This document shows, piece by piece, positions 1,567 to 45,144 of a stretch of DNA of 45,144 nucleotides. Made by a program: the position numbers and the translations under genes. This stretch comes from Pseudomonadota bacterium (lineage in GTDB: Bacteria > Desulfobacterota > Desulfobacteria > Desulfobacterales > JBDRRP01). The DNA lies in assembly GCA_043825735.1 (NCBI GenBank), contig JBDRRP010000134.1, positions 1-45,144 on the forward strand, written 5' to 3'. The notes under the pieces were generated by a model, which worked only from the letters and a program-made list of their open reading frames with translations, had not been told where the DNA came from and did not search any database. The stretch's first letter is position 1; every line of letters begins with the position of its first letter.

Positions 1567-1804
1567 GTCAACGCCTATGATTTGGGTTTACCAAGCCGGA
1601 TATCAATCTATTTGTGATCTCAATGTAGCGGGTCCGGGTGTTCTTCGTCAACCAAGCACCGTCAGATAGCCTACTTTTCCCATGGCTGAACCGCCGGCAT
1701 TCCGGATGGGTCGTTCTTTTTCCATGGGATTCGCCTTCCGTGTCTTGCAGGCATAATAGAAAACGGTTAGAAACGATTTCAAAACCTTCAATTATGCGTG
1801 GCCG

Positions 1805-3046: not shown

Positions 3047-3060
3047 GAATCGGAATCAGA

Positions 3061-9157: not shown

Positions 9158-9354
9158 GGTTACCTCCCAATAATCAATTTAATTGTCCGGTAGTTGCCAC
9201 CGTTTTTCGGTCGCAAGTGAAGCGCTCCGAAAAGACGGAAATTGCGTTCAAAGCTTCCCGTTGGGTCGCTCTTAAAGCATCCTGGTCGAGCACCGGCCGA
9301 CACTTTGCCGGCGGATTTTCCCAAGCGAGCAGGGCGACTTCTTTCGATCCTGGA

Positions 9355-10683
9355 TTAAGCGGTGCCCGTCACCATATTGGTCTCCGCCATCGGTCCTTTG
9401 CGGGCATATTTGGCCAGCAGGTAAAAATCGACAGCGCCCAGCAGTCCGTAAACCACGAGAAACCCGACCAAGGTCATTGCCACCTGGATGGTATCGATGG
9501 GTGAGACCGCCTGGGGTGTGCGCATCAAGCGGTATACGATCCAGGGTTGGCGGCCGACCTCAGCCACCAGCCACCCGAATTCGATCGCCAGGTAGCTCAG
9601 GGGCAGCGACCATACCATCAATTTCAGATATCCCGGACTCTCCATCAGGCGGTTGCGTTTAAAAAAGCCGATGAGGGTCATGAGAATGAAATAGGTACCG
9701 AGTGCCACCATGAGGCGGAAGGATATGAAGGTCAGAAGAACCGGCGGACGCTCATCTTTGGGGAAATCCTTAAGACCCCTCACCTCGGCGTTGACATCAT
9801 GGTAGCCCAAAAAGCTGAGAACTCCGGGAATGGTGCCGATCTGCACAACATTTTTTCCATCTTCCTGGCTCGGAATGGCCAGCAAGTGAATGGGCGCCCG
9901 GGTACTGGTTTCCCAGTGGGCCTCCATAGCCGCCAGTTTTTCAGGCTGCGTTTGGGTGACATTGACAGCATGCAAGTCGCCTTCGATGGCGATGAAAATG
10001 GAGAACACCAGCCCGAAGGTCAGTCCGATCTTAAAAGATCGGGTAAAAAAGTCGACATGCTGCTTTTTAAGGAGGTGATAGGCGCTGATCCCCATAACGA
10101 AGAAGGCCGAGAGAATGTAGGCGGCCGGCAAGGTGTGCAGGATCGTGAGAATACCGAACTGGTTGAATACCACGGCCGCAAAATCGGTCAGCTCCGCGCG
10201 GCCGTTTCGGAGGGTAAACCCCACCGGATGCTGCATCCAGCTGTTGGCGATCAGAATCCAGATGGCGGAAAGGTTGGTGGCGCCGGCCACCAGCCAGATC
10301 ACAACGGCGTGGGCTTTCTTGGACAGTTTTTTCCATCCGAAAACCCATACGCCAACAAAGGTGGATTCCAGGAAGAAGGCTGCGGTGGCTTCGATGGCCA
10401 GAAGTGACCCAAAGATGTCACCGACATAAGCGGAATAGCGAGACCAGTTAGTGCCGAACTGAAATTCCAGGGTAATACCGGTGACCACGCCCAGGGCAAA
10501 GTTGATCAAAAACAGCTTGCCCCAGAACTTCGTCATGGCCAGGTAGGTCTCATCCCCTGTTTTGACGTATTTGGTTTCCATCCAGGCGACAAGAACGGAA
10601 AGCCCCAGAGTCAACGGAACAAACAGGAAATGGAACATGGTGGCTGCTGCAAACTGCAGCCGTGAGAGTAGCAAAACATCCAT
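9355..10683 (-). CDS. cydA: Cytochrome bd ubiquinol oxidase subunit I (short Q-loop)
   Basis: LSRLQFA..HFLFVPLTLG, EFQFGTNW, QPEKLAAMEA and EVGRQPW motifs, 442 aa. Confidence 0.96.
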   Translation of the reverse strand: MDVLLLSRLQFAAATMFHFLFVPLTLGLSVLVAWMETKYVKTGDETYLAMTKFWGKLFLINFALGVVTGITLEFQFGTNWSRYSAYVGDIFGSLLAIEATAAFFLESTFVGVWVFGWKKLSKKAHAVVIWLVAGATNLSAIWILIANSWMQHPVGFTLRNGRAELTDFAAVVFNQFGILTILHTLPAAYILSAFFVMGISAYHLLKKQHVDFFTRSFKIGLTFGLVFSIFIAIEGDLHAVNVTQTQPEKLAAMEAHWETSTRAPIHLLAIPSQEDGKNVVQIGTIPGVLSFLGYHDVNAEVRGLKDFPKDERPPVLLTFISFRLMVALGTYFILMTLIGFFKRNRLMESPGYLKLMVWSLPLSYLAIEFGWLVAEVGRQPWIVYRLMRTPQAVSPIDTIQVAMTLVGFLVVYGLLGAVDFYLLAKYARKGPMAETNMVTGTA

Positions 10684-29904: not shown

Positions 29905-30086
29905 CAAGGGGATAATTGGCACGCTGTGCAGTTGGCAGCTAGTTGGTGTCCATCCAGAAATAGCCCTTTTCCGGATGGAGGTGATAGGCGTTAGCAATTA
30001 GCGGTTAGCATTAAAAAATGAAATCACAAGAATGGGGAAACCGAACCACGAAGTCTCGGTGCACACCACACCAAGAGGTAGCTGAT

Positions 30087-32522
30087 ATGAACATTTTTTC
30101 GCAACCGATTGCCATGGCAGAAACCATGCTGGCCGACTCACCGGCGGGCATCCTCGTCTATGAAGGTGATACGGGGAACTGTGTGCTCGCCAACCAGGCG
30201 GTTGCGGATATGCTCGGCGAGTCCGCTGCTGAACTGCGACTCCAAAATTTCCGCGCACTTGCATCCCGGTGCCAAGCCGGCCTGGACGACCTGGCCAAAG
30301 CGATTTTGCATGGCGGATTGTCGCGGCATCATGAGGTGATGTTGCAAACCGCTTCCGGCAGGATCGTCTCGCTCGACTGCTCCATCTCCCGATTCGATTG
30401 TGAGGATAAACCGTTTCTGTTGTTTATTGTCGCGGACATCACGGCGCGCAAACCGGAGCAGGAAAAACTCGTGAAGGAGCGTTCCCTGTTGCGCTGCCTG
30501 ATCGACGCCGTCAACGACCTGATCTTTATCAAGGACCGGGACAGTGTCTATCGCGGCTGCAACAAGGCGTCCGAAACATTCATCGGCCTGCCGGAATGCG
30601 AGCAGATCGGCAAGACCGACTTTGATTTTTTCGATCGCGAGAAGGCCGCGGAGATTCAAAAGGCTGACAGACAGGTGCTTGAGGATGGCAAGCCCCTGCG
30701 CATCGAGGAGTGGGTGACCGGCCGGGATGGCCGTCGCTTGCTGATGGATACCATCAAGGCCCCTTATTACGATCCGGATGGTAAACCCCTGGGGCTTGTG
30801 GGGATTGGCCGTGACATCACGGAACGCAAGCGAGCGGAACAAGAACGTCTGGCGCATCTTGAGTTCTTTGAAAACATGGACAGGGTCAACCGGGCTATCC
30901 AGGCAAACAACGACCTGGAGCAAATGATGAGTGAAGTGCTCGGCGTGGTGCTTGCGGTCTTTGAGTGCGACCGGGCGTTTCTCATGTATCCCTGCGATCC
31001 CGAGTCACCTACTTGGAGCGTTCCCATGGAGCGCCACAAACCCGAATATCCAGGCCTTAGGGAGTTGGCGCCGGAGAAGCGAATGGACCCGCAGGTTGCG
31101 GAGACGCTTCGTATTGTGCTGACCACAGGTGGTCCGGTAAGCTTCGGTCCGGGTACGGCACATGCGCTGCATGGGGAAGTGGCGGAACAATTCGGCATTC
31201 AGTGTTTCATGTCGATGGCCCTTTACCCAAAAACCGGCGGCCCGTGGCAATTCGGGATTCATCAGTGCGCTTATGCCCTTGTCTGGTCAGCGGAGGAGGA
31301 ACGGCTCTTCCAGGAAATCGGCCGGCGCTTGGTGGACGGCCTGAGCACCCTGCTGGCACACCGCGACCTGCAGCGCAGCATGGAAAGGCTCGAGGAAGCG
31401 CAACACCTCGCCCATATCGGCAGTTGGGAATTGGATTTGATACACAACGTCCTGACCTGGTCTGATGAAATCTTTCGCATATTCGAGATCGATTCCGAAA
31501 AGTTCGGGGCTTCCTATGAGGCTTTTTTAGATACCATTCACCCCGATGACCGGGAAGCCGTTCACTTGGCCTATACCAACTCGGTTGAAACCAGAACCCC
31601 CTATGCCATCGACCACCGGCTTCTTCTTCCCGACGGCCGTATCAAATACGTCCGCGAGCAGTGTGAAACATATTATGAGGGCGATACACCCGTTCGCTCC
31701 ATTGGAACCGTTCAGGACAACACCGAGCTAAAAGCTGCCGATGAAGCGCTCCAGCGGCTCAATACGGAGCTTGACCAACAGGTCAAAAAGCGGACCGCCG
31801 AGTTGGAGACGTCGAATCGAGAGCTTGAGGCCTTCGCCTACTCGGTGTCCCATGACCTGAGAGCACCGCTGCGCCATATTGACGGCTTTATGGAATTGCT
31901 CCAAAAGAAAGAAAAAACCGCGTTGGACGACAAGAGCCGCCACTATATGGACAGCATTTCCGCCGCGGCCCAAAAAGCGGGACTGTTGATCGACGATCTG
32001 CTCTTCTTCTCCCGCATGGGGAGCCACACCCTGTCGTTCCAACCGGTGGCGCTGGGGCCCCTGGTGCGCGAGCTCATCGGCGAACTTGAGCCCGATACCG
32101 CCGGCAGGAACATCGCCTGGTGCTTCGGCGATCTGCCCACGGTGCGCGGCGATGCCCCCATGCTGAGGATGGTCCTGGCCAACCTGATCGCCAATGCGGT
32201 TAAATTCACCCGGCCCCGGGAGCAGGCCCAAATCGAAATCGGATCGCTGCCCGGACAGGCTTCCGAAACCGTGATTTTCGTGCGCGACAACGGCGTGGGC
32301 TTCGACATGGCCTATGCGGACAAGCTGTTCGGCGTGTTCCAGCGCCTGCACCGAACGGAGGAGTTCGAGGGCACCGGCATCGGGATGGCCAATGTGCGCC
32401 GCATCATCGCCCGGCACGGGGGGCGGACCTGGGCCGAAGGCATGCTGGACCAAGGTGCGACGTTTTACTTTTCTCTGGCGCACAAACTGCAATGCGGCGG
32501 GGATGAGGTGGCAGTGAAATAG
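30087..32522 (+). CDS. PAS-PAS-GAF-PAS-HisKA-HATPase kinase
   Basis: Domain motifs as named plus [13 protein letters not shown]. Start set at ATG 30087 after GAGGT; the ORF is open from 30018. Confidence 0.9.
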   Translation: MNIFSQPIAMAETMLADSPAGILVYEGDTGNCVLANQAVADMLGESAAELRLQNFRALASRCQAGLDDLAKAILHGGLSRHHEVMLQTASGRIVSLDCSISRFDCEDKPFLLFIVADITARKPEQEKLVKERSLLRCLIDAVNDLIFIKDRDSVYRGCNKASETFIGLPECEQIGKTDFDFFDREKAAEIQKADRQVLEDGKPLRIEEWVTGRDGRRLLMDTIKAPYYDPDGKPLGLVGIGRDITERKRAEQERLAHLEFFENMDRVNRAIQANNDLEQMMSEVLGVVLAVFECDRAFLMYPCDPESPTWSVPMERHKPEYPGLRELAPEKRMDPQVAETLRIVLTTGGPVSFGPGTAHALHGEVAEQFGIQCFMSMALYPKTGGPWQFGIHQCAYALVWSAEEERLFQEIGRRLVDGLSTLLAHRDLQRSMERLEEAQHLAHIGSWELDLIHNVLTWSDEIFRIFEIDSEKFGASYEAFLDTIHPDDREAVHLAYTNSVETRTPYAIDHRLLLPDGRIKYVREQCETYYEGDTPVRSIGTVQDNTELKAADEALQRLNTELDQQVKKRTAELETSNRELEAFAYSVSHDLRAPLRHIDGFMELLQKKEKTALDDKSRHYMDSISAAAQKAGLLIDDLLFFSRMGSHTLSFQPVALGPLVRELIGELEPDTAGRNIAWCFGDLPTVRGDAPMLRMVLANLIANAVKFTRPREQAQIEIGSLPGQASETVIFVRDNGVGFDMAYADKLFGVFQRLHRTEEFEGTGIGMANVRRIIARHGGRTWAEGMLDQGATFYFSLAHKLQCGGDEVAVK

Positions 32523-32627
32523 GGTAAAATAGTCTGGGCTATAAAATAAAATGGAAATCGGGTATTCTCAAAATGTTCGGTCTATCGGATAAGCTTTGTT
32601 TGCCGATAGAACGAAACGTTTACCAAA

Positions 32628-32752
32628 ATGGGAGAAGGAAGGTTTCAGAAAATAAAAGCGCAGACAGGGGATGTGGAGAGAATGCGAAAAGCATTGATAA
32701 AATCCTTTGGAAAACAAACACTTGGATCCTTGAATCCTGGAACCCTGGGACC
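32628..32752 (+). pseudogene. Degenerate 3' end of a four-helix-bundle (23S rRNA IVP-like) gene with octamer repeats
   Basis: GDVERMRKALIKS, then LENKHLDP* after a 1-nt shift. Overlaps the tandem octamers CTTGGATC-CTTGAATC-CTGGAACC-CTGGGACC (32721-32752). Family assignment is from recall. Confidence 0.5.
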
Positions 32753-32826
32753 CTTTCTCCCAACGAATTGGGAGAAGAACCAAAAGTTTTACTTTTCACC
32801 GCCACAGACACCCATAGGAGGGGGAC

Positions 32827-33279
32827 ATGCACACCATTAAGCGGATCCTGCTGGTCGAGGACGACCCCAAGGATATCGAGTTGACCCTTGCGGCGCTTGC
32901 CGAGTACAATCTGGCCAACGAAGTTGAGGTTGCCCGAGACGGGGTGGAGGCGCTGGACTATCTGCACCGGCGGGGATCATACGTGCAGCAACGTACCGGC
33001 AACCCGGTGGTGATCCTGCTCGATCTCAAAATGCCCCGGCTGGACGGCCTTCAGGTGCTGCAGCAAATCAAGGCGGACGAGCAATTGCGCCTGATCCCGG
33101 TGGTCGTCCTGACCTCGTCGCACGAATCATTCGACCTGGAGCAGTGCTACAAGCTTGGCGCCAACGCCTATGTGGTCAAACCGGTCCGCTTTATAGACTT
33201 TGTCGATGCCGTAAAGCAAACCGGTGTGTTCTGGGCGCTGCTCAACCAGTCGCCACCTGACAATGCCACCAAGAAGTGA
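32827..33279 (+). CDS. Single-domain response regulator, Rcp1/CheY-like
   Basis: ILLVEDDPKDIEL...DGVEALDYL...ILLDLKMPRLDG...IPVVVLTSS...CYKLGANAYVVKP is the Rcp1-type signature. Confidence 0.92.
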   Translation: MHTIKRILLVEDDPKDIELTLAALAEYNLANEVEVARDGVEALDYLHRRGSYVQQRTGNPVVILLDLKMPRLDGLQVLQQIKADEQLRLIPVVVLTSSHESFDLEQCYKLGANAYVVKPVRFIDFVDAVKQTGVFWALLNQSPPDNATKK

Positions 33280-33397
33280 TGCTCCTCCCGCAAAGTGGTA
33301 GGCATCAGGATGCACTCTCAAAGGGGGCTGACACCCAACTGGAGCTTTGTATTGTATGGGTTCTTTTTCAAATCAAACCCTAAAAACCGTTTTCTCG

Positions 33398-33421
33398 CGC
33401 AGAGACGCAAAGACGCAGGGA
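33398..33421. repeat. Short tandem octamer repeat
   Basis: CGCAGAGA-CGCAAAGA-CGCAGGGA in the intergenic gap. Confidence 0.45.
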
Positions 33422-33498
33422 AAACCACATGTTGTTTCCAGCTACACGGGATCAAAATCAAGAAGCAAAGGCGCACTGAGGGAAAGGAATGCTGAAGC

Positions 33499-35814
33499 AT
33501 GGAAACCTCGATCCATATTCTGCACCTGGAAGACGACCCGGCCGACGCGGAGCTCGTGCAGGCCGCGCTGGTGGAAGCCGGTCTGGCTTGCCGCGTTGAC
33601 CGTGCCCAGACGCGGGCTGAATTCGAGACCGGTCTGGGCGATAGCGGAACGGATATCATCCTGGCGGATTACAAGCTGCCGGCCTACGACGGCCTATCCG
33701 CGCTGCGCCTGGCGCAGGAGCACTGCCCCGAGATTCCGTTTATCTTTGTCTCCGGCACCATGGGTGAAGAGGCGGCCATTGAGGCGCTGACCCACGGCGC
33801 CACCGATTACGTGCTCAAACAGAATTTGGCGCGCCTGGCTACAGCGGTTCAGAGGGCGCTGCAGGAGGCGCGAATTTGGCGCGAGCGCAGACAGGCCCGG
33901 GAAGCGTTGCACAGTTCCAATGAAATGCTGAAAGCATCGGAAGCCAGATATATCGATCTCTACGACAACGCCCCGGATATGTATCTGTCGGCCGATGCCC
34001 AAACCGCAGCGATCACCACCTGCAACCAGACCCTGGCCGATACCCTGGGATACCCGAAAGCAGAGATCATTGGCCGGTCAATATATGAAATCTATCACCC
34101 GGCTTGTCTGGACCGGGCAAAACAGGCTCATACGGAGTTTCTGGAGAGGGGCGAGATCCATGACAGAGAGCTTCAATTGCGGAAAAAAGACGGCTCCAAA
34201 CTGGATGTCAGCCTGAACGTGTCGGCGGTACGTGCCAAGGACGGCGCCATTGTTTCCAGCCGGGCGACCCTGCGCGATATCACCGAGCGCAAGCAGGCGG
34301 AGGCGTCCATCCGCCAGCTCTCCCAGGCCATCGAACAGAGCCCGGTATCCATTGTCATCACCAATACTGCCGGTTCGATCGAATTTGTCAATGCCAAATT
34401 TACCCAGGTCACGGGATATGCGGTTGCCGAAGCCCTGGGCCAGAACCCCCGCATCCTGAAGTCGGGGGAAACGGCGGCCGATGAGTATGAGCGGCTTTGG
34501 AAAACCATCAGCTCGGGCGGGGTATGGCGCGGAGAATTTATCAACCGCAAAAAGAACGGCGAGCTGTTCCGGGAACAGGCGACCATCGCCCCGGTCAGAA
34601 ATGCGGACAACCTCATCACGCATTACGTAGCGGTCAAGGAGGATATCACCGAGCGCAAAAATCTCGAAGCGCAGCTCAGCCAGGCCCAGAAAATGGAGGT
34701 GGTCGGGCAGTTGGCCGGCGGCGTGGCCCATGATTTCAACAATATGCTGGGCGTGATTATCGGCTACACGGAGATGCTTCTGGAGCTGGAAGATCTGGAT
34801 GATTTGCTGCGCGAGTATCTTGACGAAATCCTGGCGGCCGGTCATCGTTCAACGGATATCACACGGCAGTTGCTGGCCTTTGCCCGCAAGCAGACCGTTG
34901 TGCCCAAGATCCTTGACCTGAACGAGACTGTCGAGCGAATGCTCAAGATGCTCCGGCGGCTTATCGGAGAGCATATCGAACTTGCCTGGCTGCCGGGGGC
35001 GAAGCTATGGCCGGTCAAAATGGATCCCTCCCAGATCGATCAGATTCTGGCCAACCTTTGCGTCAATGCCAGGGATGCCATCGCCGGGGTGGGCAACGTC
35101 ACCATCGAGACACAAACAGCCGATTTCGATGAGGTGTACTGTGCCGACCATCGGGGATTTATCCCCGGTGAGTATGTGGTGCTGGCGGTGAGTGACAACG
35201 GCAGCGGCATGGATAAACCGACGATGGACAAGATTTTCGAGCCTTTTTTCACCACCAAACCGGTCGGCAAGGGCACTGGCTTGGGGCTGGCCACGGTATA
35301 CGGCATCGTCAAGCAGAACGACGGCTTCATCAATGTGACCAGCGGGCCGGGTCATGGCTCGACCTTCAAGATTTACCTGCCCCGGTATACCGTCGCAGTC
35401 GGGCAGGCACTGGCGGCGCGGCACACCCCTTCCGGCCTGATGGGTCACGCGACCATCCTGATCGTGGAAGATGAAATCTCACATTTAACGATGGTGAAGC
35501 TGATACTTGAAGGATACGGGTATCGGGTGTTGGCCGCATCAACGCCGGATGACGCTCTCCTTATGGCCAGCGAGTACAGCGGGGGGATCCACCTGCTGCT
35601 GACCGATGTGGTCATGCCCGAAATGAACGGTCTGGCGCTTGCCAATAAGATGACCGCGCTTTTACCCGATATCTTGTGCTTGTATATGTCCGGCTACTCG
35701 GGCGACATCATCGCTCATCATGGGATTATTGAAGCGGGTGGCCATTTCATTCAAAAGCCATTTTCAAAACAGGCCCTGGCTGAAAAGGTCAGGGAGGTGC
35801 TGGCCGGCAAATGA
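33499..35814 (+). CDS. CckA-like hybrid kinase (REC-PAS-PAS-HisKA-HATPase-REC)
   Basis: ILHLEDD...[56 protein letters not shown]. Confidence 0.93.
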
Positions 35815-35881
35815 AGTCCGCCTGAAGAGTCCCGGTCTTACCATCCGACGGTTCTGGACCAAAGCGAGGATTAAAAAGACC

Positions 35882-37279
35882 ATGGCCAACATATTGATTG
35901 TAGACGATGAGAAATTGCTCTGCGAAATGGTGAGCAAAAAACTAAGTAGTCTGGGGCACGCGAGCACCTGTGCGCATACGCTGGCCAAAGGGTTGAAAGC
36001 GGTGTCTGAATCGGCATTTGACCTGGTGCTGCTGGATGTGCATTTGCCCGATGGAAGCGGTCTTGAGGCGTTATCCAAATTCAAGTCTTCACATTCTCAA
36101 CCTGAGATAATTATCATCACCGGTGAAGGCGATCCTGGCGGCGCGGAGCTGGCCATTGAAACCGGGGCCTGGGATTATATCGAAAAACCGCTGTCCATAA
36201 GAGAAATCACCCTGCAAGTCACCCGGGCGCTGCAGTACCGCCAAGAAAAGACGGCCTTCAGACCGGCAAAACTGCTGAAAAGGGAAGGCATCATCGGCGG
36301 CGATCCCAAAATGGAAGCGTGTCTGGAGCAGGTCGTCCAATGCGCCGGAACAGACGCCCCGGTGCTGGTTGTCGGGGAAACCGGTACCGGAAAGGAGCTT
36401 TTTGCCCGGGCCGTGCATGTCAACAGCAGCCGGTCAAAGGGCCCTTTCGTGGTGCTCGATTGCACTGCGTTTCCTGAAAATCTTGTGGCCAGTATGCTTT
36501 TCGGACATCGCAAGGGGGCCTTTACCGGGGCCGATCGAACCCGCCGCGGGCTGATCCTGGAGGCAGACAAAGGAACGCTTTTCATGGACGAAGTGGGTGA
36601 ACTGCCGCTCACGATCCAGAAGTCTTTTTTACGGGTGCTTCAGGAACATCGCTTCCGTCCGGTGGGTGGACAGCAGGAGACGGTCAGCGACTTCAGGTTG
36701 GTCGCCGCCACCAATCGGGATCTTGAAAAGATGGTCCACGGCGGTCTGTTTCGAAAGGATCTCATGTACCGGCTCCGGTCCGCCATCATTCATCTGCCGC
36801 CACTGAAAGAAAGAAAGGCAGACATCTATCCACTGGCCCTGCATTACATATCCGGCTTCTGTATACGGTACTCGATGGGTGTCAAAGGGGTTTCACCGGA
36901 ATTCTTAGAGGCCCTGCAAGCTTATGCATGGCCCGGCAATGTCCGCGAATTGATCAATGCCATGGACTGTGCCATCGCCAATGCGCAAAAGCACGATGTG
37001 CTGTTTCCCATGCATCTGCCGGCAAACATCCGCATCAGCCTCAAACAGCAAACGATCCGGGCAAAGAAAGCCGCCCATGCCCCGCAAACAAAACCGATGC
37101 CAACAGATGCGTCTCTGTCCAGCTTGAAAGCGTCGCTTGAAAACGCGGAAAAACGCTATCTTGAAGCTCTCATGATCCACTCGAGCGGGGATATACAAGC
37201 GGCGTGCCGGATATCCGGCCTGTCGCGATCGGGGTTGTACGCCCGCCTGAAAAAGTACGACATCGAACGCCCTGTCTGA
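35882..37279 (+). CDS. NtrC-family sigma54-dependent response regulator (REC-AAA+-HTH)
   Basis: MANILIVDDE, GETGTGKE, GAFTGA, LFMDEVGE, WPGNVREL and a Fis-type HTH. Start set at ATG 35882. Confidence 0.95.
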   Translation: MANILIVDDEKLLCEMVSKKLSSLGHASTCAHTLAKGLKAVSESAFDLVLLDVHLPDGSGLEALSKFKSSHSQPEIIIITGEGDPGGAELAIETGAWDYIEKPLSIREITLQVTRALQYRQEKTAFRPAKLLKREGIIGGDPKMEACLEQVVQCAGTDAPVLVVGETGTGKELFARAVHVNSSRSKGPFVVLDCTAFPENLVASMLFGHRKGAFTGADRTRRGLILEADKGTLFMDEVGELPLTIQKSFLRVLQEHRFRPVGGQQETVSDFRLVAATNRDLEKMVHGGLFRKDLMYRLRSAIIHLPPLKERKADIYPLALHYISGFCIRYSMGVKGVSPEFLEALQAYAWPGNVRELINAMDCAIANAQKHDVLFPMHLPANIRISLKQQTIRAKKAAHAPQTKPMPTDASLSSLKASLENAEKRYLEALMIHSSGDIQAACRISGLSRSGLYARLKKYDIERPV

Positions 37280-37290
37280 CTTTTCGCCGC

Positions 37291-37486
37291 TCATTTTTCC
37301 GTCACGCCTGCTGTCCAAGACTTTGGACGAATTCGGCAATTCGGCCTTTTGGGGTCTATAACTCTGGACAGCCGTCTTTTTTACCAGAATGTCAATGCGC
37401 TCCTGATTACCGCCAATATTCTGTAATAAAAGACAATCCACACCCGACTGCATCTAAAAGCACCTTTGGCAGAGGATTTGCTATCT
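37291..37486 (+). promoter_or_regulatory. Sigma54 promoter cassette copy A (three enhancer-like palindromes plus -24/-12)
   Basis: GTCCA-N6-TGGAC (37313-37328), a degenerate middle box, GTCTA-N6-TGGAC (37354-37369) and TGGCAGAGGATTTGCT (37467-37482). Directly downstream of the NtrC-family gene. Confidence 0.8.
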
Positions 37487-37588
37487 TTCGTCCTGGAGCG
37501 TCGCCCTGAATTGATAAAGATTAAATCCAGGTGCCTTGAATCATCAAATTAGGATCTTGGTATGCCAAGTGAAAAAGAAGGATCCAGG

Positions 37589-40500
37589 ATGACCCCCTTG
37601 ATCAACATTGTGCATCTTGAAAATGACCCGTCCGATGCGGAGCTCGTTCGGGCCACGCTCGCTGAAGCCGGTTTGGCTTGCCGCATAACCATCGCCCAAA
37701 CGCGGGATGAGTTTGAGACCGCCCTGCGCGATGGCGGAATGGACATCATTCTGGCCGACTACCGACTGCCGGTGTATGACGGTATGTCGGCGCTGCGGCA
37801 GTCACAGGAAGTGCGGCCGGAGGTACCCTTCATCTTTGTATCCGGTACCATGGGCGAAGAGATGGCCATCGCAGCGTTGACCCGGGGTGCCGTCGATTAT
37901 GTGCTCAAAACGAATCTGTCGCGCCTCGCACCGGCTGTCCACCGAGCCTTGGCGGAAGCCCGCAACCGGCGCGAACATAGACAGGCCCAGGCGGCGCTGC
38001 AGCGCGCCAACAGGATCAATGCGGCCCGTCTCCGCCTGATGCAATTTGCCGTCACCCACACACTGGATGAGCTGCTGGAGGAGACCGTCAATGAAGCCGA
38101 GAAAGTGACCGAAAGCCTGATCGGATTCTTTCATTTTGTGGACGACGATCAGCAATCGCTGACCCTCCAGAACTGGTCCACCCGCACCAAGGCGCAGTTT
38201 TGCAAGGCCCGAGGCAAAGGGTTGCATTACCCCATCGCCGATGCGGGCGTCTGGGTGGATTGCGTCCGTGAGCGCAAGCCGGTCATCCATAACGATTACG
38301 CGTCCCTGATCCATCGCCGGGGCCTGCCCGAGGGGCATGCCGAGGTCATCCGCGAATTGGCGGTGCCGGTGATGCGGGGAGAGAAAATCAAGGCCATCCT
38401 GGGGGTGGGCAACAAGGCAACCGATTATTCGCAAAAGGACGTGCAGGCCCTGTCCCTGCTCGCCGACCTGGTCTGGGAGATCACGGAGCGCAAACAGGCG
38501 GAAACGGCACTTGCTGCGCGCGAACATGAATTTCGTACGCTGGCGGAGAATCTGCCGGACAACATCGTCCGTTACGATCGAAAAGGCCGGGCTGTTTACA
38601 TCAACCCGGTTCTCGAGAAAACCCTGGGTGTTGCCGCGGCAGACAGGATCGGCATGCGTGTCCGCGAATTCCATACCGATGGGAGTTACGAAGTCTACGC
38701 CCAAGCCGTGGACCGGGTTCTCACCAGCGGCGAGAACAGCGGATTTGAGTTTATATTACCCGCCGCGGGCAAGGCGCCGCCAGTCTATCAAATGCGCATG
38801 ATCGCCGAACGCAACGAACATGGCGAAGTGACCGGCGTACTCGCCATCAGTCGCGATATCACCGAGCGCAAACAGGCCGAGCGCGAGCGAGTGGCTACGC
38901 TCAAGTTTTTTGAAAACATGGACAGGGTCAACCGGGCCATTCAGGGTGCCGATGATTTCGAAAAAGTGATGCAGGATTTACTCGACGTCGTGCTTTCGAT
39001 CTTTGATAGCGACCGGGCGTTCCTTGTGTTCCCCTGCGATCCCGAGTCGCCAACATGGACCAGCCCCATGGAGCGCCACAAGCCGGAATATCCCGGCCTG
39101 GCGGATTTGAAGATAGAAATGCCGATGGACGCACAAATTGCAAAGAAGCATCGTATCCTGCTGTCCGCGGATGGTCCGGTAGCCTTCGGTCCGGGTGCGC
39201 CCTATGGGTTGCCCGAGGATGTGTCGAAGCAATTCGGCATTAATAGTATGCTGGCGATGGCCATTTACCCCAATACCGGCCGGCCGTGGGAATTCGGCAT
39301 CCACCAGTGCGGCTATGCCCGTGTCTGGACAGCGGAGGAGATAAGGCTGTTCGAAGCAATCGGCAGGCGTCTGGCCGACAGCCTGAGCAGCCTGCTGAGT
39401 CATCGCGACCTGTGCCAGAATGAAGAATTCCTCGATAACGTTGTGGAACACATTCCCAACATGATCTTCATAAAGGATGCCCAGACCCTTAGGTTCGTCA
39501 GATTCAACAGCGCCGGCGAACAGCTGTTGGGATACGCGCGGGAAGAACTGCTGGGGAAGAGTGATTACGACTTCTTTCCCAAAGAGGAAGCGGACTTCTT
39601 TACGGCCAAGGACCGGGAGGTTCTGGATACCCGGGCGCTTGTGGATATCCCCGAGGAGAGCATCCGCACCCGGAACAATGAGGAGCGGATTCTGCATACC
39701 CAGAAAATACCCCTTCTGGACGAAGCCGGAGCCCCGCAATACCTGCTGGGCATATCCGAGGATATTACCGAACGCAAGCAGGCGGAGGCGTCCATCCGCA
39801 AGCTCTCCCAGGCCATCGAACAGGGCCCGGTCTCCATTGTCATCACCGATGCGGCCGGTTCGATCGAATTCGTCAATGCCAAATTCACCCAGATCACGGG
39901 GTATACTTCTGCTGAGGCCCTGAATCAGAATCCCCGCTTCCTGAAGTCCGGCGAGACACCGGCCGAAGAATACAAACGGCTTTGGGAGACCATCAGTTCG
40001 GGCAGCGTCTGGCACGGAGAGTTCCACAATCGCAAAAAGAACGGCGAGATGTTCTGGGAACGGATCACCATCGCGCCGGTCAAAGACGCGGACAATGTGA
40101 TCACCAATTACGTGGCGGTCAAGGAGGATATCAGCGAGCGCAAAAAACTCGAAGAGCAGCTTCGTCAGACCCAGAAGATGGAGGCGGTCGGCCAATTGGC
40201 CGGCGGCGTGGCCCATGATTTCAACAATATGCTGGGTGTGATCATCGGCTACGCGGAGCTGGCCCTGACAAGGGCGGACCTGGATGATGCACTGCGCAAC
40301 AATCTTGAACGAATCCACGCCGCCGCTCTGCGGTCAACGGAAATTACGCGGCAGCTGCTGGGCTTTGCCCGCAAGCAGACCATTACGCCCAAGATCCTCG
40401 ACTTGAACGAGGTTGTCGAGGAGATGCTCAAACTGATCAGGCGACTTATCGGCGAGGATATCGACCTGCTCTGGCTGCCGGGGGCAACGATAGGGGCGGT

Positions 40501-41299
40501 CAAAATGGATCCCTCCCAGATCGATCAGATTCTGGCCAACCTGTGCGTCAATGCCAGGGATGCCATCGACGGGGTGGGCAAAGTCACCATCGAAACGCGC
40601 AAAGCTGTTTTCGACAATGCCTGCTGTGCCGAACATAGGGGGTTTTCCCCTGGTGAATATGTGATGCTGGCGGTGAGTGATAACGGTGACGGCATGGACA
40701 AAGCGACCATGGGCAAGATCTTCGAACCCTTTTTCACCACCAAGGGCTTGGGCCAGGGCACCGGACTGGGGTTGGCCACAGTCTACGGCATCGTCAAGCA
40801 GAACGAAGGCTTCATCAATGTGTACAGCGAACCAGGCCATGGCTCGACCTTCAAGATTTACCTGCCCCGGTATGCAGACCGAACCCGTCAAGAACCAAAA
40901 GCAAGCCCTGATCCTCAAGACCTGAGCGGTCATGAAACCATTCTGGTGGCGGAAGATGAGGTTCTGAGTTTAGAATTGCTGGAGCAGGTGCTTAAAGGCT
41001 ACGGATATCAAGTATTGGCCGCATCTTCTCCAGGCGAGGCGCTTCTTGCAGCCAAAAAGCACACCGGTAAGATCCACCTGCTGCTGACCGATCTGATCAT
41101 GCCTGAAATGAACGGGCGGAATCTGGCGAAGGAGATGGCCGCGCTTTACCCCGGCATTTTGTGCCTGTTCATGTCCGGTTACACGGACGACGTCATCGTT
41201 CACCATGGTGTTCTTGACGAGGGTGTCCAGTTTATTCAAAAGCCGTTTTCAAAACAGGCCCTGGCCGCCAAGGTCCGTGAGGTGATAGACGCCGATTAG
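37589..41299 (+). CDS. Large CckA-like hybrid kinase (REC-GAF-PAS-GAF-PAS-PAS-HisKA-HATPase-REC)
   Basis: Domain motifs as named plus AHDFNNML. N-terminal REC and C-terminal part closely paralogous to 33499-35814. The ORF is open from 37562. Confidence 0.92.
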   Translation: MTPLINIVHLENDPSDAELVRATLAEAGLACRITIAQTRDEFETALRDGGMDIILADYRLPVYDGMSALRQSQEVRPEVPFIFVSGTMGEEMAIAALTRGAVDYVLKTNLSRLAPAVHRALAEARNRREHRQAQAALQRANRINAARLRLMQFAVTHTLDELLEETVNEAEKVTESLIGFFHFVDDDQQSLTLQNWSTRTKAQFCKARGKGLHYPIADAGVWVDCVRERKPVIHNDYASLIHRRGLPEGHAEVIRELAVPVMRGEKIKAILGVGNKATDYSQKDVQALSLLADLVWEITERKQAETALAAREHEFRTLAENLPDNIVRYDRKGRAVYINPVLEKTLGVAAADRIGMRVREFHTDGSYEVYAQAVDRVLTSGENSGFEFILPAAGKAPPVYQMRMIAERNEHGEVTGVLAISRDITERKQAERERVATLKFFENMDRVNRAIQGADDFEKVMQDLLDVVLSIFDSDRAFLVFPCDPESPTWTSPMERHKPEYPGLADLKIEMPMDAQIAKKHRILLSADGPVAFGPGAPYGLPEDVSKQFGINSMLAMAIYPNTGRPWEFGIHQCGYARVWTAEEIRLFEAIGRRLADSLSSLLSHRDLCQNEEFLDNVVEHIPNMIFIKDAQTLRFVRFNSAGEQLLGYAREELLGKSDYDFFPKEEADFFTAKDREVLDTRALVDIPEESIRTRNNEERILHTQKIPLLDEAGAPQYLLGISEDITERKQAEASIRKLSQAIEQGPVSIVITDAAGSIEFVNAKFTQITGYTSAEALNQNPRFLKSGETPAEEYKRLWETISSGSVWHGEFHNRKKNGEMFWERITIAPVKDADNVITNYVAVKEDISERKKLEEQLRQTQKMEAVGQLAGGVAHDFNNMLGVIIGYAELALTRADLDDALRNNLERIHAAALRSTEITRQLLGFARKQTITPKILDLNEVVEEMLKLIRRLIGEDIDLLWLPGATIGAVKMDPSQIDQILANLCVNARDAIDGVGKVTIETRKAVFDNACCAEHRGFSPGEYVMLAVSDNGDGMDKATMGKIFEPFFTTKGLGQGTGLGLATVYGIVKQNEGFINVYSEPGHGSTFKIYLPRYADRTRQEPKASPDPQDLSGHETILVAEDEVLSLELLEQVLKGYGYQVLAASSPGEALLAAKKHTGKIHLLLTDLIMPEMNGRNLAKEMAALYPGILCLFMSGYTDDVIVHHGVLDEGVQFIQKPFSKQALAAKVREVIDAD

Positions 41300-41361
41300 G
41301 CGATGAAACATAGTAGGCTGGAGAAATATTGCAGGCTACCGTGGTTACTCTGGAGGCGATC

Positions 41362-41484
41362 ATGAAATTTTTTAACTCACTTAAAGACATTATGACCATA
41401 AATTCGATCCTTGATATTGAACAGCGTATTTCGGGAATTGATTATTTGAAGAAGTTAGAAGCTATCTCAAAACCTCTTAGGTAG
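41362..41484 (+). pseudogene. 5' stub of an AT-rich gene interrupted by the IS5 element
   Basis: RBS GGAGG, then MKFFNSLKDIMTINSILDIEQRISGIDYLKK reading into the IS end and stopping inside it. Confidence 0.4.
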
Positions 41485-41884
41485 TGGTGCTCGAATTATT
41501 TAACACAATATATAGTATATTCAATATGTTATAAAACTAGACATCCCTCGCATTTTTGTGTATTAGGCTATTGGAGGTGCTCCGATGCCCAAATACACTG
41601 GCTTCATAAATGACAAGCACTGGGAAATGCTGGAACCACTGCTTCCCAAAACCAAACCCAATCCGAAGGGTGGCCGTCCCCCGGCCGGTAACCGCGAAGT
41701 TCTTGGAGGTATTTTGTGGATATTGCGGACCGGCGCACGATGGCAGGATCTTCCCGATCGATATCCAAGTCCATCCACCTGTTGGCGACGACTACGGCTT
41801 TGGGTGGACCAGGGGGTTTTGCTCGATGTGTGGCGTAAGTTTCTGTCAATATAAGATGAAAAGCATCTAATAGACTGGCTATAG
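41455..41884 (+). mobile_element. IS5-family remnant (left end plus truncated DUF4096 transposase N-terminus from 41585)
   Basis: DKHWEMLEPLLP...GGRP...REVLGGILWILRTGARWQDLP..YPSPSTCWRR. TAA at 41852-41854, then DEKHLIDW, then loss of similarity. No DDE part. Confidence 0.85.
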
Positions 41885-42120
41885 GTTCTCTCCTTAATAT
41901 CCCTTCTTTCCTACCAAAAATCTCACGATAACTTACCAATCAGTGAGACCTCCTGGTAACCGATATTAAGAATTATTGGGTAAACGCGGCTGCGACGGGC
42001 ATGGGACTGGCGCGCCTGCTACGGACCTGGCAGTAATGAACGCATTGCCGTGGCGCGTTATGAATGCCGCAACCCGGCCCCCCGCTGCGCTGCGTGACAA
42101 GCACCCGCAATGGACGCCGA

Positions 42121-42398
42121 TACCTTCCCAGCGTTCCACCACCAACCACGTGGTGCGCTCCAACATCGCTTTATCAGCCAACTCTCAGCGTGCCGGGCGA
42201 TTTTCTGACTTCGCCATGAATGAGCAAAGCTCGTCACAACACCCCGCCGAATCGAGTTCGTTATCCTGCGGACCGCTGGTTCGCTTCCGGTTGCTCTCCA
42301 TCCCACCTCACGGTGACGCAGTTACCTTCAGCTACGGGGCCTTGGCTTACCCCGACACGGACTCACACCGTGCCAATATGGCGCCTTCACAGGCGCAC
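42121..42398 (-). ncRNA. 5' fragment (domain I region) of a bacterial group II intron
   Basis: Minus strand begins GTGCGCCTGTGAAGGCGC (GUGYG 5' splice site) and continues GTAGCTGAAGGTAACTGCGTC...GAGCAACCGGAAGCGAA...AACGAACTCGATTCGGCGG. No RT ORF or domain V seen. The lower boundary is approximate. Confidence 0.75.
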
Positions 42399-42496
42399 TC
42401 ATCCCGGCGAAAGCCGGGATCCCGGAATTTCGAATACTTCTATACTCCGGCCTTCCACCGTCGGCAAGGCTTCGGCGGACAGGCCGCCGGAGTGAT
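42399..42496. repeat. REP-like two-hairpin element with a nested palindrome
   Basis: Hairpin ATCCCGGC-GAAA-GCCGGGAT (42401-42420). Second arms ACTCCGGC...GCCGGAGT (42444-42493) enclose an extra ~34-bp palindromic piece containing CCGTCGGCAAGGCTTCGGCGGACAGG. Confidence 0.7.
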
Positions 42497-42537
42497 GGCG
42501 CTTGAAACTTTACGGGGCCATCGATTTTCTACCGCCT

Positions 42538-42731
42538 TCATTTTTCCGGCACGCCCCCTATCCAAAAAATTGGACGAATCCAGCAATTCGGACTTCTTTG
42601 GTCCATAGCTTTGGACTACCCTCTTTCTAACCATGCGCCGGCGCCGCCTGGTTTCCTTCAATATGCTGTAATAAAATACAATACACACGATAGTGCATAT
42701 AGAAGCCCCTTTGGCAAAGGATTTGCAATCT
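42538..42731 (+). promoter_or_regulatory. Sigma54 promoter cassette copy B
   Basis: ATCCA-N6-TGGAC, ATCCA-N6-CGGAC and GTCCA-N6-TGGAC (42560-42616), then TGGCAAAGGATTTGCA (42712-42727). Homologous to copy A along its length. Confidence 0.82.
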
Positions 42732-42789
42732 CTTAGGTGGCAGCAAGGAGCAACTTGCATTGGTATAAGTATTTAGAGGAAGGGCAAAA

Positions 42790-43161
42790 ATGAAAGTCAT
42801 ATTTTATTCTACAACAATGAACGGGTGCATCGATAGATTGAAGCCCATGTTGCTCTCGCTGGTATCAGAGAAGCACATGGCGTTCACTAATGACATTGAA
42901 GATTTCACACGTGCACTTGTCAAATACCGACCCGTTAGGCCGATTGTGGTGATTCATGTCAACAGCGATGAGGATGTTGCCGAAGTCAAAGAACTGGATA
43001 ACATGTTGGACGATCTGTTTCTGATCATCATTACCGAAAACGATAGTAAGGCGGTGCTTATGAGCTGTCGCCGGCTCTATCCAAGATGGCTGAGCCATGC
43101 TGATGACGATCTCGGGATTGTTACTGCCGTGATTGAAAAACGGTTGGCTGATCACGGTTAA
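42790..43161 (+). CDS. Hypothetical 123-aa alpha/beta protein, possibly a degenerate receiver domain
   Basis: RBS GAGGAAGG. Hydrophobic strands VIFYS, IVVIHV and FLIIIT are spaced like a REC fold, but there is no acidic pair, phospho-Asp or KP motif. Confidence 0.65.
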   Translation: MKVIFYSTTMNGCIDRLKPMLLSLVSEKHMAFTNDIEDFTRALVKYRPVRPIVVIHVNSDEDVAEVKELDNMLDDLFLIIITENDSKAVLMSCRRLYPRWLSHADDDLGIVTAVIEKRLADHG

Positions 43162-43224
43162 AACAATTCCAGAACAGTATCCATCATTTAATACACCATG
43201 AAATTCGGAAAAGGAGACATTGAA

Positions 43225-45144
43225 ATGAAACTCTCAAGATTGATGACAATTGCCTGGGTGCTGCTTGCTGGCTTTGTACTGACAACAAACATTCAGGCGG
43301 CCTCGAAGCCGCCTCCGGAACAGGTCCTTCAGATGCTCGTCGAGGGCAATCAGCGATTTGCTGAAGGAAAATCCATTCATCCGCATACCGGTAATGACAG
43401 ACTCCACCAGGCCGGGACACAAAACCAGGGGGACCATGCTTATGCAACCATAATTAGCTGCTCTGATTCCAGGGTGCCGGTGGAGCGGATATTTGACGCC
43501 GGTGTGATGGACATTTTTACCATTCGCGTGGCCGGCAATGTAGTCGATACGGACGAGGCCGGATCCATTGAATATGGCCTGGCGCATGTCCACACGCCGG
43601 TGATGGTCGTTCTCGGGCATACCCAGTGCGGTGCGGTGACGGCCGTAGCCCGTTCGATCCATGGCAAAGGCCATGCCCTTGAGATCAATATCCCGCCACT
43701 GGTAGACAATATCGAGCCGGCGGTAAAGCGGGCGATGGCACAGCATCCCGGCATCCACGGTGACGACATTATCCCGCACGCGATCGTTGAAAATGTCTGG
43801 CAGGGCGTCGAGGACCTTTTCACTAAGAGCCCCGCAACGCGAAATCTTGTCAATAGCGGCACGGTTAAAGTCGTCGGTGCTATTTATAATGTGGGCACCG
43901 GCCGGGTCGAATGGCTGCCGGAGCTACCGGTGGCCCAAATTCTCAAAAAGGTTGAAGCGAACCCGCAGCGGCAGCTCAATGCCATGGCCGGCGGGCATGG
44001 CGATGGAGTCGCGCACACGCCCCATGCCGGCGCCGCATCCCACGCCGGCGTCAGCCAGGCAGACCGGGAGGCGGTCGTCGGTATCCTGAGAACATTGGGA
44101 AATGACCATCAGGCAGCCGCAACCTACCAGAAGAAAATCTCAGACGCAGGCCACACGAACACCGGTTTCTTTATTCTGGGGCTGGTGGTGTTGCTCGTTT
44201 CAATCGGCCTGACCATTTTCTACGCCCGCGGCAAGGATGAGCATGGCGTTACCCGCCTGCAAAAAAGCCTGGGGGCCAAACTGGTGGCCAGTTTTTCCGT
44301 CATTGTCCTGCTGCTGGCAGGTTCGGCCATTTACGCCCTGGTCGCCATAAGCGGCATCGGCGATGAAATTGCGGAGCTTGCCGAAGAGGTCATTCCCGTA
44401 ACGGACAGAGTATCAACAGTAGGAACGCTGATGCTCGAACAGGCCGTGAACCTGGAGCGTACGTATCGTTTTGGTGAAGAAGCGGGTGCGCATGCCAAAG
44501 AGGGCTTTGAAAAAAGTGTCGCAGCGTTCGAGCATTTCGGCAAAGAGGTCGGCCGGGAACTGGCGGCCGGTATCAAGCTGCTCGAGGAACTACCCGCTCA
44601 CAATGCCGAAGGTGCCCAGACAATGGTTGAAAGCTTGAATGCACTGGCCACCATAAACGACCACCACCACAAATATGAAATACTCGGCCTGAAGGTCATT
44701 GAACTTTTGAAAGCGGGCATGACGGGGCAGGCCCGGCTGCTCGAAGAAGCTGTCGAACAAGCCCAGGATAACCTCGCTCATGAAATCGAGGCTTTTGTTG
44801 CCGAGATGCACAAGCGCTCCGAAGGGGCGGCCCATAAAGCTGAAATGGATGAAAAAAGGGCCGCCAAAATTATCTGGATTATATCTCTTATGGCTGTTGT
44901 CGCGGCTTTTTCTATCGCCGTCCTTAATACCCGATCGATCATTAACCCCATCAACCGGGTTATTGCAGGTCTCAACGAGGGCGCCGAGCAGGTGGCGTCG
45001 GCCTCGAGCCAGGTCTCCACGGCCAGCCAGTCCCTGGCCGAAGGCGCCTCCGAGCAGGCGGCCTCCATCGAGGAGACCTCCTCCTCCCTGGAAGAGATGT
45101 CTTCCATGACGCGCCAGAACGCCGACAACGCCACCCAAGCCGAT
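43225..45144 (+). CDS. Beta-carbonic anhydrase / methyl-accepting chemotaxis protein fusion (3'-incomplete, >=640 aa)
   Basis: Hand translation from ATG 43225 (RBS AAGGAG) finds no stop to the window end. Order: signal peptide; beta-CA (EGNQRF, C79-S-D81-S-R83, IRVAGNV, GSIEYG, LGH132TQC135GAV, GAIYNVGTG); His-rich linker; TM; basic loop; TM; helical LBD; TM; MCP coil (GAEQVASASSQVS...SLAEGASEQAASIEETSSSLEEM). Confidence 0.92.
   Translation, partial: MKLSRLMTIAWVLLAGFVLTTNIQAASKPPPEQVLQMLVEGNQRFAEGKSIHPHTGNDRLHQAGTQNQGDHAYATIISCSDSRVPVERIFDAGVMDIFTIRVAGNVVDTDEAGSIEYGLAHVHTPVMVVLGHTQCGAVTAVARSIHGKGHALEINIPPLVDNIEPAVKRAMAQHPGIHGDDIIPHAIVENVWQGVEDLFTKSPATRNLVNSGTVKVVGAIYNVGTGRVEWLPELPVAQILKKVEANPQRQLNAMAGGHGDGVAHTPHAGAASHAGVSQADREAVVGILRTLGNDHQAAATYQKKISDAGHTNTGFFILGLVVLLVSIGLTIFYARGKDEHGVTRLQKSLGAKLVASFSVIVLLLAGSAIYALVAISGIGDEIAELAEEVIPVTDRVSTVGTLMLEQAVNLERTYRFGEEAGAHAKEGFEKSVAAFEHFGKEVGRELAAGIKLLEELPAHNAEGAQTMVESLNALATINDHHHKYEILGLKVIELLKAGMTGQARLLEEAVEQAQDNLAHEIEAFVAEMHKRSEGAAHKAEMDEKRAAKIIWIISLMAVVAAFSIAVLNTRSIINPINRVIAGLNEGAEQVASASSQVSTASQSLAEGASEQAASIEETSSSLEEMSSMTRQNADNATQAD

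Follow-up and report, generated by a model that had tools for sequence, protein, structure and literature searches.

A predicted periplasmic carbonic anhydrase built into a bacterial chemoreceptor: a candidate enzyme-coupled sensor of CO2, bicarbonate or pH

Contig JBDRRP010000134.1 (C134) of assembly GCA_043825735.1, from a Pseudomonadota bacterium that GTDB places in the Desulfobacterales, carries at its end a gene that joins an exported beta-class carbonic anhydrase (CA) to a methyl-accepting chemotaxis protein (MCP). The whole of this contig, 45,144 nucleotides (nt) in length, constitutes the window analyzed here; the fusion gene occupies positions 43225-45144 on the forward (+) strand, and the contig terminates at 45144. 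The parts of the encoded protein come from known families. As judged from homologous sequences, the architecture is sporadic yet widespread, and not peculiar to one genome. We propose that the tethered CA would rapidly turn CO2 into bicarbonate and protons beside the sensor, and that the protein would serve as a receptor for CO2, bicarbonate or pH, a reading to which we give an even chance. A preliminary description of this DNA, made from its letters, had already put forward an enzyme-coupled CO2, bicarbonate or pH sensor; alpha-class CAs found on the same family of ligand-binding domain (LBD), with the same topology, add support to that idea, and the sensing function is still something that we infer. 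The features of the gene and of its predicted product, including three transmembrane (TM) helices, are as follows.

43225..45144 (+): CA-MCP fusion gene, 640 codons, its 3' end lost at the contig end (from the translation and the list of open reading frames)
43211..43216 (+): ribosome-binding site AAGGAG, 8 nt 5' of the ATG at 43225 (read from the sequence)
43225..43299 (+): predicted Sec-type signal peptide, residues 1-25 (hydropathy 1-19, helix 2-20)
43312..43959 (+): beta-class CA domain, residues ~30-245 (Pfam, AlphaFold2, solved relative)
43960..44160 (+): predicted periplasmic tether, residues 246-312 (His/Gly/Ala-rich disorder at 255-274, then an amphipathic helix at 278-293)
44161..44226 (+): predicted TM0, an extra TM helix, residues 313-334, running from outside to inside (hydropathy 314-332, score 2.67; helix 313-334)
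44227..44280 (+): predicted basic cytoplasmic loop, residues 335-352 (five K/R versus two D/E)
44281..44361 (+): predicted TM1, residues 353-379 (hydropathy 357-375; within helix 349-418)
44362..44859 (+): predicted periplasmic four-helix-bundle LBD, residues 380-545 (AlphaFold2, Foldseek)
44860..44934 (+): predicted TM2, residues 546-570 (hydropathy 549-567, score 2.74; within helix 500-610)
44935..45144 (+): start of the cytoplasmic MCP signalling domain, residues 571-640 (weak MCP matches; the last 177 bases are a repeat)

The gene reads as a single frame of 640 codons with zero stops, in agreement with the preliminary description, and is listed as open at its 3' end. An in-frame ATG lies upstream at 43198; it was set aside as a start, and the ATG at 43225 is preferred because AAGGAG precedes it. 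In a groundwater metagenome (run X1, possibly the source sample and hence not independent), a contig from another assembler spans 43100-45033 with 0 differences and a depth of 18.7. Coverage across 43900-44350, the interval that the preliminary description had singled out for checking, is even on that contig, and neither the translation nor the run X1 contig contains a stop or a frameshift between the CA and MCP parts.

The same joining of domains recurs well outside this genome. A search for homologues returned 644 candidates at E <= 1e-3, and the best 120 of the 644 are the listed matches referred to below; PF00484 (Pro_CA) and PF00015 (MCPsignal) occur together in 87 of these 120 clusters by Pfam annotation, and in 89 by phmmer count, so that the homologues sought by the preliminary description proved common. 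The closest full-length relatives among the matches listed, P0002 (848 residues) and P0004 (887 residues), each share 59% identity over 96-98% of the query, and judging by their size the complete window protein would have ~850-890 residues. The listed fusions derive from NCBI, JGI, ENA and Logan assemblies, several of them on contigs of 100-400 kb, and their source names (Phycisphaerales, Eisenbacteria, Zixibacteria, Chitinivibrionales, Desulfobacula and Desulfobacteraceae) span several phyla. Another genome of the same phylum contains an uninterrupted open reading frame (ORF) of 1019 residues with Pro_CA, HAMP and MCPsignal on a contig of 335 kb (locus L092). We found no description of a CA-chemoreceptor fusion in the full texts of open-access papers and bioRxiv preprints (supplements excluded). 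The preliminary description knew of no characterized receptor with this architecture. The architecture is widespread and already bears the name 'methyl-accepting chemotaxis protein/carbonic anhydrase' in automatic annotation by JGI.

The CA domain is complete. Pro_CA matched residues 74-228 (43444-43908) with E 1.4e-36 and 126.6 bits against a cut-off of 25.7, covering profile positions 1-156 of 156, and the other marks of the beta family, the Cys-His-Cys zinc ligands and the Asp-Arg dyad, are all found in the sequence. The CSDSR motif (from residue 79, 43459) and the HTQC motif (from residue 132, 43618) lie at the very positions given in the preliminary description, which had called the domain complete. 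Every one of the 49 aligned fusions has C79, D81, R83, H132 and C135; of the 120 listed homologues, 119 keep CxDxR and 118 keep HxxCG. With every catalytic residue retained, the enzyme is apparently competent. Its nearest solved structure is the Mycobacterium tuberculosis beta-CA Rv3588c (2a5v/1ym3, E 2e-25). Across the 49 aligned fusions, the mean frequency of the top residue was 0.77 in the CA core, 0.58 in the signalling part and 0.42 in the LBD, indicating that the CA is the best-conserved region and the one under the strongest constraint in the protein. Doubled CA domains were also observed: P0003 and P0012, close relatives of the fusion's CA, are secreted proteins of ~520-540 residues with two Pro_CA domains in tandem, and P0129 (1134 residues) is an MCP fusion bearing two CA domains.

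Four hydrophobic segments were evident in a Kyte-Doolittle scan (residues 1-19, 314-332, 357-375 and 549-567), coinciding with the signal peptide, extra TM helix, TM1 and TM2 of the preliminary description. The first contains K2 and R5, a 14-residue hydrophobic core and I-Q-A ahead of the predicted cut, the cleavage site being read from the sequence; an uncleaved N-terminal anchor would equally keep the CA periplasmic. AlphaFold2, run with a 49-row alignment, yielded a mean predicted local distance difference test (pLDDT) score of 86.5. The model comprises a confident CA at ~30-245 (pLDDT mostly >90), disorder at 255-274 (<50), a helix at 278-293 (~90), TM0 at 313-334 followed by a short hairpin loop, four long helices spanning 349-610, and an additional helix at 616-639. 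The basic loop between TM0 and TM1 is placed in the cytoplasm because the signalling domain is cytoplasmic and the LBD periplasmic. TM0 would then enter from the periplasm, and therefore the CA and the LBD are predicted to lie on one periplasmic side, consistent with the signal peptide. This three-TM topology, with the CA located in the periplasm beside the LBD, is self-consistent and agrees with what had been suggested earlier; hydropathy and AlphaFold2 both bear it out, and all topology tests that were run point to the periplasm rather than to a cytoplasmic CA.

Between the end of the CA and TM0, the 49 fusions carry 63-143 residues (median 84) that are poorly conserved and have a median His content of 5.6% versus 2.5% for the whole protein. 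TM0 is found at the same location in nearly all fusions, and the motifs of both the tether helix (278-293) and the basic loop are also present in CA-less relatives. A predicted complex of the LBD (376-548) with the CA and linker (27-312) scored 0.31 and 0.30 against a mark of 0.32, in runs without controls.

The hydrophobic segments of TM1 and TM2 flank a bundle of ~170 residues, which is the arrangement expected of an MCP sensor domain. When residues 376-548 were modelled alone, AlphaFold2 returned four helices in an antiparallel four-helix bundle with a pLDDT of 95.2, bearing out the earlier assignment of a helical, four-helix-bundle-like LBD. Foldseek placed the Vc1313 LBD (8bsa) first (TM-score 0.72; Tsr 0.64), followed by Tsr, Tar, MCP2201 and PcaY; TM-scores ranged over 0.5-0.78, with a best E of 5.9e-03 and none below 1e-3. 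By sequence, the Pfam family 4HB_MCP_1 fell below its cut-off on the LBD (E 0.069; 13.1 bits versus 27), a cut-off that the relatives P0046 and P0076 do pass, and a comparison of the LBD with solved structures in the PDB gave chance-level matches only (best E 0.032, to riboflavin synthase). Polar residues conserved across the family are P391, E405, Q406, E411, R412, H481, E511, E540 and E543; position 403 is Q in most relatives and M in the window protein. This cluster is common to members with a beta-CA, with an alpha-CA and with none, as well as to canonical receptors, reaching frequencies of 0.9-1.0 at several positions in 45 canonical rows, which suggests a family-wide ligand or metal site.

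About 70 residues of the signalling part lie in the window, and no Pfam MCPsignal call was made on them. NCBIfam MCP models matched weakly at ~578-639 (E 4.7e-07 to 8.3e-04) and Tsr chains matched with E ~1e-06 (~573-639 overall); the matches are weak because the signalling domain is cut off. Close homologues of 840-1076 residues carry PF00015. A Pfam scan did not detect HAMP in the window protein, and HAMP (PF00672) is present in some fusion relatives. The preliminary description had taken the protein from TM1 onward to be a normal MCP: TM1, the LBD, TM2 and the start of the signalling domain are indeed there, but they form part of a distinct receptor body that also exists without a CA, as emerged from a search with the LBD.

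The LBD alone (173 residues) was searched against 1.84 billion representatives, giving 371 matches at E <= 1e-3. Among the best 150 of these 371, we distinguished (i) nine beta-CA fusions, including the window protein and one with two CA domains, (ii) five fusions to an alpha-class CA (PF00194), which has an unrelated fold, (iii) 23 CA-less proteins in which the LBD begins after residue 75, 16 of them with three hydrophobic segments before the LBD, and (iv) 113 canonical two-TM receptors. The alpha-CA fusions share the layout of signal peptide, CA, TM0, TM1 and LBD. When 24 of the proteins with a late LBD were scanned with Pfam, the N-terminal domains found were alpha- or beta-CA only. Many of the CA-less long forms consist of a signal peptide, a His/Gly/Ser-rich stretch, the conserved amphipathic helix, TM0, the conserved basic loop and TM1. 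The part of the window protein that follows the CA is thus assigned, by homology, to a distinct receptor body that also occurs CA-less.

Fusions to the alpha class are themselves numerous. PF00194 and PF00015 occur together in 61 of the 120 listed relatives of the alpha-CA fusion P0194 (62 by phmmer count), with source names including Desulfobacteraceae, Thermodesulfobacteriota, Sterolibacterium, Magnetoovum and Leptospiraceae. Of the 62 alpha-CA fusions, 60, 57 and 62 keep the respective signature motifs of the alpha class, as defined by human CA II.

The relationships among these receptors were examined in a quick, unrooted FastTree phylogeny of 165 TM1-LBD-TM2 segments (56 beta-CA, 42 alpha-CA, 22 CA-less long forms and the best 45 of 96 eligible canonical receptors), from which rows with partial LBD coverage were excluded. 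The window protein belongs to a starred group of 57 rows (39 beta-CA, 17 CA-less and one alpha-CA), with the CA-less P0075 as its nearest neighbour at 55% identity. Most alpha-CA rows fall in another part of the tree, interspersed with canonical receptors and another set of beta-CA fusions. Neither CA class forms a single group, and the starred branches require at least six changes of the beta label and at least three of the alpha label; as the tree is unrooted and quick, gains are indistinguishable from losses. The repeated pairing with non-homologous CAs argues that it is CA activity, and not one particular fold, that is under selection.

A third class of CA may be placed beside such a receptor. 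In another genome of the same phylum (locus L093), a gamma-CA gene (310-1203, +) is followed after a gap of 16 bp by a gene for a CA-less receptor (1219-3435, +). The gamma-CA has 297 residues, a twin-arginine (Tat) signal and a Cam-type sequence (PDB 1qq0, E 2.8e-75; NCBIfam carb_anhyd 314 bits, under the cut-off of 380), and the receptor, of 738 residues, has a very His-rich N-terminal periplasmic stretch. We regard this adjacency as a single-case lead, not a pattern.

Physical considerations suggest what a tethered CA could contribute. CO2 is uncharged, membrane-permeant and hard to bind specifically; its uncatalyzed hydration at neutral pH takes tens of seconds, and swimming cells compare concentrations across a few seconds. 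As hydration is slower than the time of comparison, a receptor that reads bicarbonate or protons would track a CO2 gradient only with a CA. In the mechanism that we propose, the tethered CA would set a fast local equilibrium of CO2, bicarbonate and protons at the receptor; the LBD, or the neighbouring His-rich tether, would sense a product of the CA; TM2 would carry the signal into the cytoplasmic signalling domain, from which it would reach CheW/CheA; and the outcome would be taxis on gradients of CO2, inorganic carbon or pH. Because beta-CAs occur as obligate dimers and MCPs as homodimers, we infer that one receptor dimer can hold one CA dimer. Given the disorder of the tether and its range of lengths (63-143 residues), a leashed enzyme fits better than a rigid allosteric link. 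More tentatively, at somewhat less than an even chance, the window protein may be the first recognized bacterial CO2-taxis receptor of a broad enzyme-coupled class, with alpha- or beta-CA fused and gamma-CA perhaps adjacent, in which the four-helix-bundle family marked by the E/Q/E-R/H/E cluster, its canonical CA-less members included, would be a bicarbonate or proton sensor; on this view the His-rich tether may gather protons locally.

Several observations weigh against an enzyme-coupled sensor. The polar residues of the LBD are equally or more conserved in the 45 canonical two-TM receptors that lack a CA, which leaves room for an LBD stimulus that has nothing to do with CA products: either a CA product is sensed throughout the LBD family, or the LBD senses another stimulus, with the CA adding or conditioning a second input. 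Further, 37 of 89 beta-CA fusions and 23 of 62 alpha-CA fusions miss the LBD profile and carry a longer helical LBD that is weakly HBM-like; with two types of LBD, no single product-binding site explains all of the fusions. The fusion was found in none of 30 relatives of the same order and in one of 300 other sampled genomes of the phylum, where 12 genomes had a match at E <= 1e-60, comprising 11 stand-alone CAs and the one fusion. By this sampling the fusion is rare and patchy within the phylum, though it occurs in several phyla according to source names. The organism also has a second beta-CA (C139:33272-33724, -) in an open frame of 253 residues that starts with a twin-arginine signal and shares 36% identity with the fusion's CA, and periplasmic CA activity as such therefore needs no fusion. 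A scan of genome contigs for related loci was dominated by the generic MCP pattern, with a CA match at only one (L009, unfused) of 68 loci, and is uninformative on taxonomic spread. As for the gamma class, an MCP lies within ~1.5 kb at just one of 23 Cam-type gamma-CA loci in 301 genomes (window genome included), and no MCPsignal domain was found among 43 longer gamma-CA homologues. Finally, the neighbours of the fusion gene in the window are histidine kinases and a sigma-54 activator, and a link to carbon metabolism was not seen among them.

Some of these points would suit an arrangement in which the receptor merely anchors the CA, whether at polar arrays or in order to buffer pH or bicarbonate around an LBD that senses another ligand. 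The identity of the conserved LBD residues in CA-less canonical receptors, and the presence of at least two LBD types on CA fusions (the four-helix bundle and the longer, weakly HBM-like form), are in keeping with such a passenger enzyme. So is the presence of close stand-alone homologues of the exported CA in five of the 30 genomes of the same order (67-71% identity; ORFs of 235-318 residues), with no MCP match within the ~1.5 kb fetched on each side; fusions of CAs to transporters are also common elsewhere, for instance SulP with gamma-CA. Nevertheless, we consider a passenger role unlikely. Two non-homologous classes of CA have repeatedly been fused to chemoreceptors with the same three-TM solution, the 24 Pfam-scanned relatives of the LBD include no N-terminal enzyme other than an alpha- or beta-CA, and for anchoring alone a signal peptide or a single TM helix would do in place of a whole chemoreceptor of ~850 or more residues.

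It is rather improbable, in our estimation, that the CA is itself the sensor, with binding of CO2 or bicarbonate, or a pH-dependent change of its active site or oligomer, relayed through the helix, TM0 and the loop to TM1 and TM2, and with the four-helix bundle serving merely as a structural relay or a second input. Its closest solved relative, Rv3588c, undergoes a pH-dependent switch of active site and oligomer, and the CA is the best-conserved region of the fusions; in addition, the helix at 278-293 (which is confidently modelled), TM0 and the loop motif are kept in relatives without a CA, suggesting that the N-terminal membrane module matters in signalling. Yet the segment between the CA and TM0, with its disorder at 255-274, its poor conservation and its variable length, would make a poor conduit for a conformational change. 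Alpha-CAs, with another fold, occupy the same place on the same LBD family, so a fold-specific switch could not be the common principle, and the CA-less forms retain the entire receptor body. That the fusion is an artefact of chimeric assembly, or of a sequencing frameshift between separate CA and MCP genes, was rejected as exceedingly improbable: the genome is fragmented (160 contigs) and C134 ends in a repeat, but the junction lies ~1 kb upstream of that repeat and is evenly covered without differences in run X1, P0002 and P0004 align end to end, and both the 87 listed clusters and the 1019-residue ORF of another genome share the architecture.

The candidate sensor can be set beside several known systems. 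Canonical receptors (Escherichia coli Tar/Tsr, V. cholerae Vc1313, C. testosteroni MCP2201 and P. putida PcaY_PP) have the same LBD fold between TM1 and TM2 and an apparently like signalling domain, whereas the window protein has, ahead of TM1, an exported enzyme at its N terminus, a further TM helix and a cytoplasmic loop, with no HAMP detected. Stand-alone exported beta-CAs (L077-L081; Rv3588c) have the same Pro_CA domain, zinc ligands and dyad, and in the homologues from relatives of the organism the conserved post-CA tail is present as well, the chain stopping within its His-rich stretch at 276-311 residues; the window protein, in contrast, runs on through TM0 into a chemoreceptor. The alpha-CA-MCP fusions (P0194, P0203 and P0223) follow the same order of signal peptide, CA, TM0, TM1, helical LBD, TM2 and MCPsignal, with LBDs homologous to that of the window protein (E 1e-11 to 5e-08), but their enzyme is of the unrelated PF00194 fold and they fall mostly in another part of the LBD tree. 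In Helicobacter pylori TlpA, reported to have bicarbonate and acid as signals, the LBD is instead a dCache domain, no enzyme is attached, and the topology is the canonical two-TM one. According to a paper on M. tuberculosis (PMC13343901, citing Johnson 2015 and Dechow 2025), beta-CAs have been proposed to lower periplasmic pH and so activate the PhoR kinase of PhoPR; that sensor is a histidine kinase distinct from the CA proteins, not a chemoreceptor, and the link is presented as hypothetical. Fusions of SulP transporters with CAs, of which we observed proteins with gamma-CA and PF00916, likewise join a CA to a membrane protein that handles its product, but serve transport and not signalling. 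Among animals, a tethered CA IV in sour-taste cells and CA II in olfactory GC-D neurons convert CO2 to protons and bicarbonate that are sensed nearby; these systems differ in being eukaryotic and made of separate proteins, with receptors not homologous to the one described here.

The open end of the gene has a simple cause. The final 177 bases of C134 are 98% identical to the end of contig C135 (2185 bases), and in run X1 positions 45004-45144 sit on a separate contig of 258 bases at a depth of 51.6, ~3x that of the spanning contig. C134 breaks inside a repeat of ~3 copies common to paralogous MCP genes, not at a stop, and the frame is left open because of this repeat. C135 contains an MCP C-terminal tail, then a CheW-like gene (so labelled from its translation alone), and then the start of a canonical-looking second MCP that breaks at the repeat of C134; another contig, C31, begins within an MCP signalling domain, ~31 residues past the C134 break. 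The MCP tails on C31 and C135 share an identical terminal acidic/aromatic pentapeptide. Each was considered as the missing 3' end, and with ~3 copies of the repeat neither is assignable. In two metatranscriptome runs of the same study, matches were confined to the conserved final ~130 bases at 90-95% likeness, and are uninformative on expression.

Upstream of the fusion gene, a run of signalling genes on one strand occupies 27838-41299 (+). It includes four PAS/GAF-rich histidine kinases beginning at 27838, 30018, 33499 and 37562 (+), three of which have receiver domains, as well as a single-receiver gene at 32827 (+) and a sigma-54 activator at 35720-37279. The CA-MCP gene at L092 also adjoins a PAS-containing sigma-54 activator; directly upstream of that gene lies an IS1595-type transposase split into two ORFs (9209-10152, -; Zn-ribbon and DDE), which may bear on the patchy distribution of the fusion. 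In the window, a gap of 1.9 kb separates the hybrid kinase gene from the CA-MCP gene. Its two ORFs, 41976-42608 and 42790-43161, matched no Pfam family; the latter (+, 123 residues) ends 63 nt 5' of the CA-MCP gene on the same strand and may be co-transcribed with it. The gap also contains a match to the group II intron family D1-D4-3 (RF02001) at 42117-42317 (-), of full model length (42.9 bits, gathering score 32, E 7.8e-07). This match probably represents a fragment of an intron, and within 41200-43300 it was the sole Rfam family to attain its gathering score. Two sites of the sigma-54 -24/-12 type, each with one mismatch and both with GGATTTGC, were noted at 42712-42727 (+), 78 nt 5' of the ORF at 42790-43161, and at 37467-37482 (+), 80 nt 5' of the hybrid kinase gene at 37562. 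The idea of sigma-54 promoters was dropped, as four matches (with at most one mismatch) against 2.04 expected, a number equalled in 13 of 100 shuffles, are not above chance. A search of 42500-43300 for sigma-70-like promoters found none.

The prevailing view is that bacterial chemoreceptors bind their ligands, either directly or by way of binding proteins. A receptor whose enzyme makes its own ligand from the stimulus would represent a different principle of sensing and, if the proposal is true, a bacterial equivalent of the CO2 senses that animals couple to CAs. With two classes of CA on one receptor family, and a CA-less form placed beside a third, the hypothesis is sharp and testable. It would make the orphan four-helix-bundle sensors, a large family, candidate sensors of bicarbonate or pH, and a CA-coupled receptor could act as a CO2 biosensor module. 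For the organisms themselves, taxis to CO2 or inorganic carbon would be relevant both to anaerobes of sediment and groundwater, where such gradients mark zones of mineralization, and to autotrophs that need CO2.

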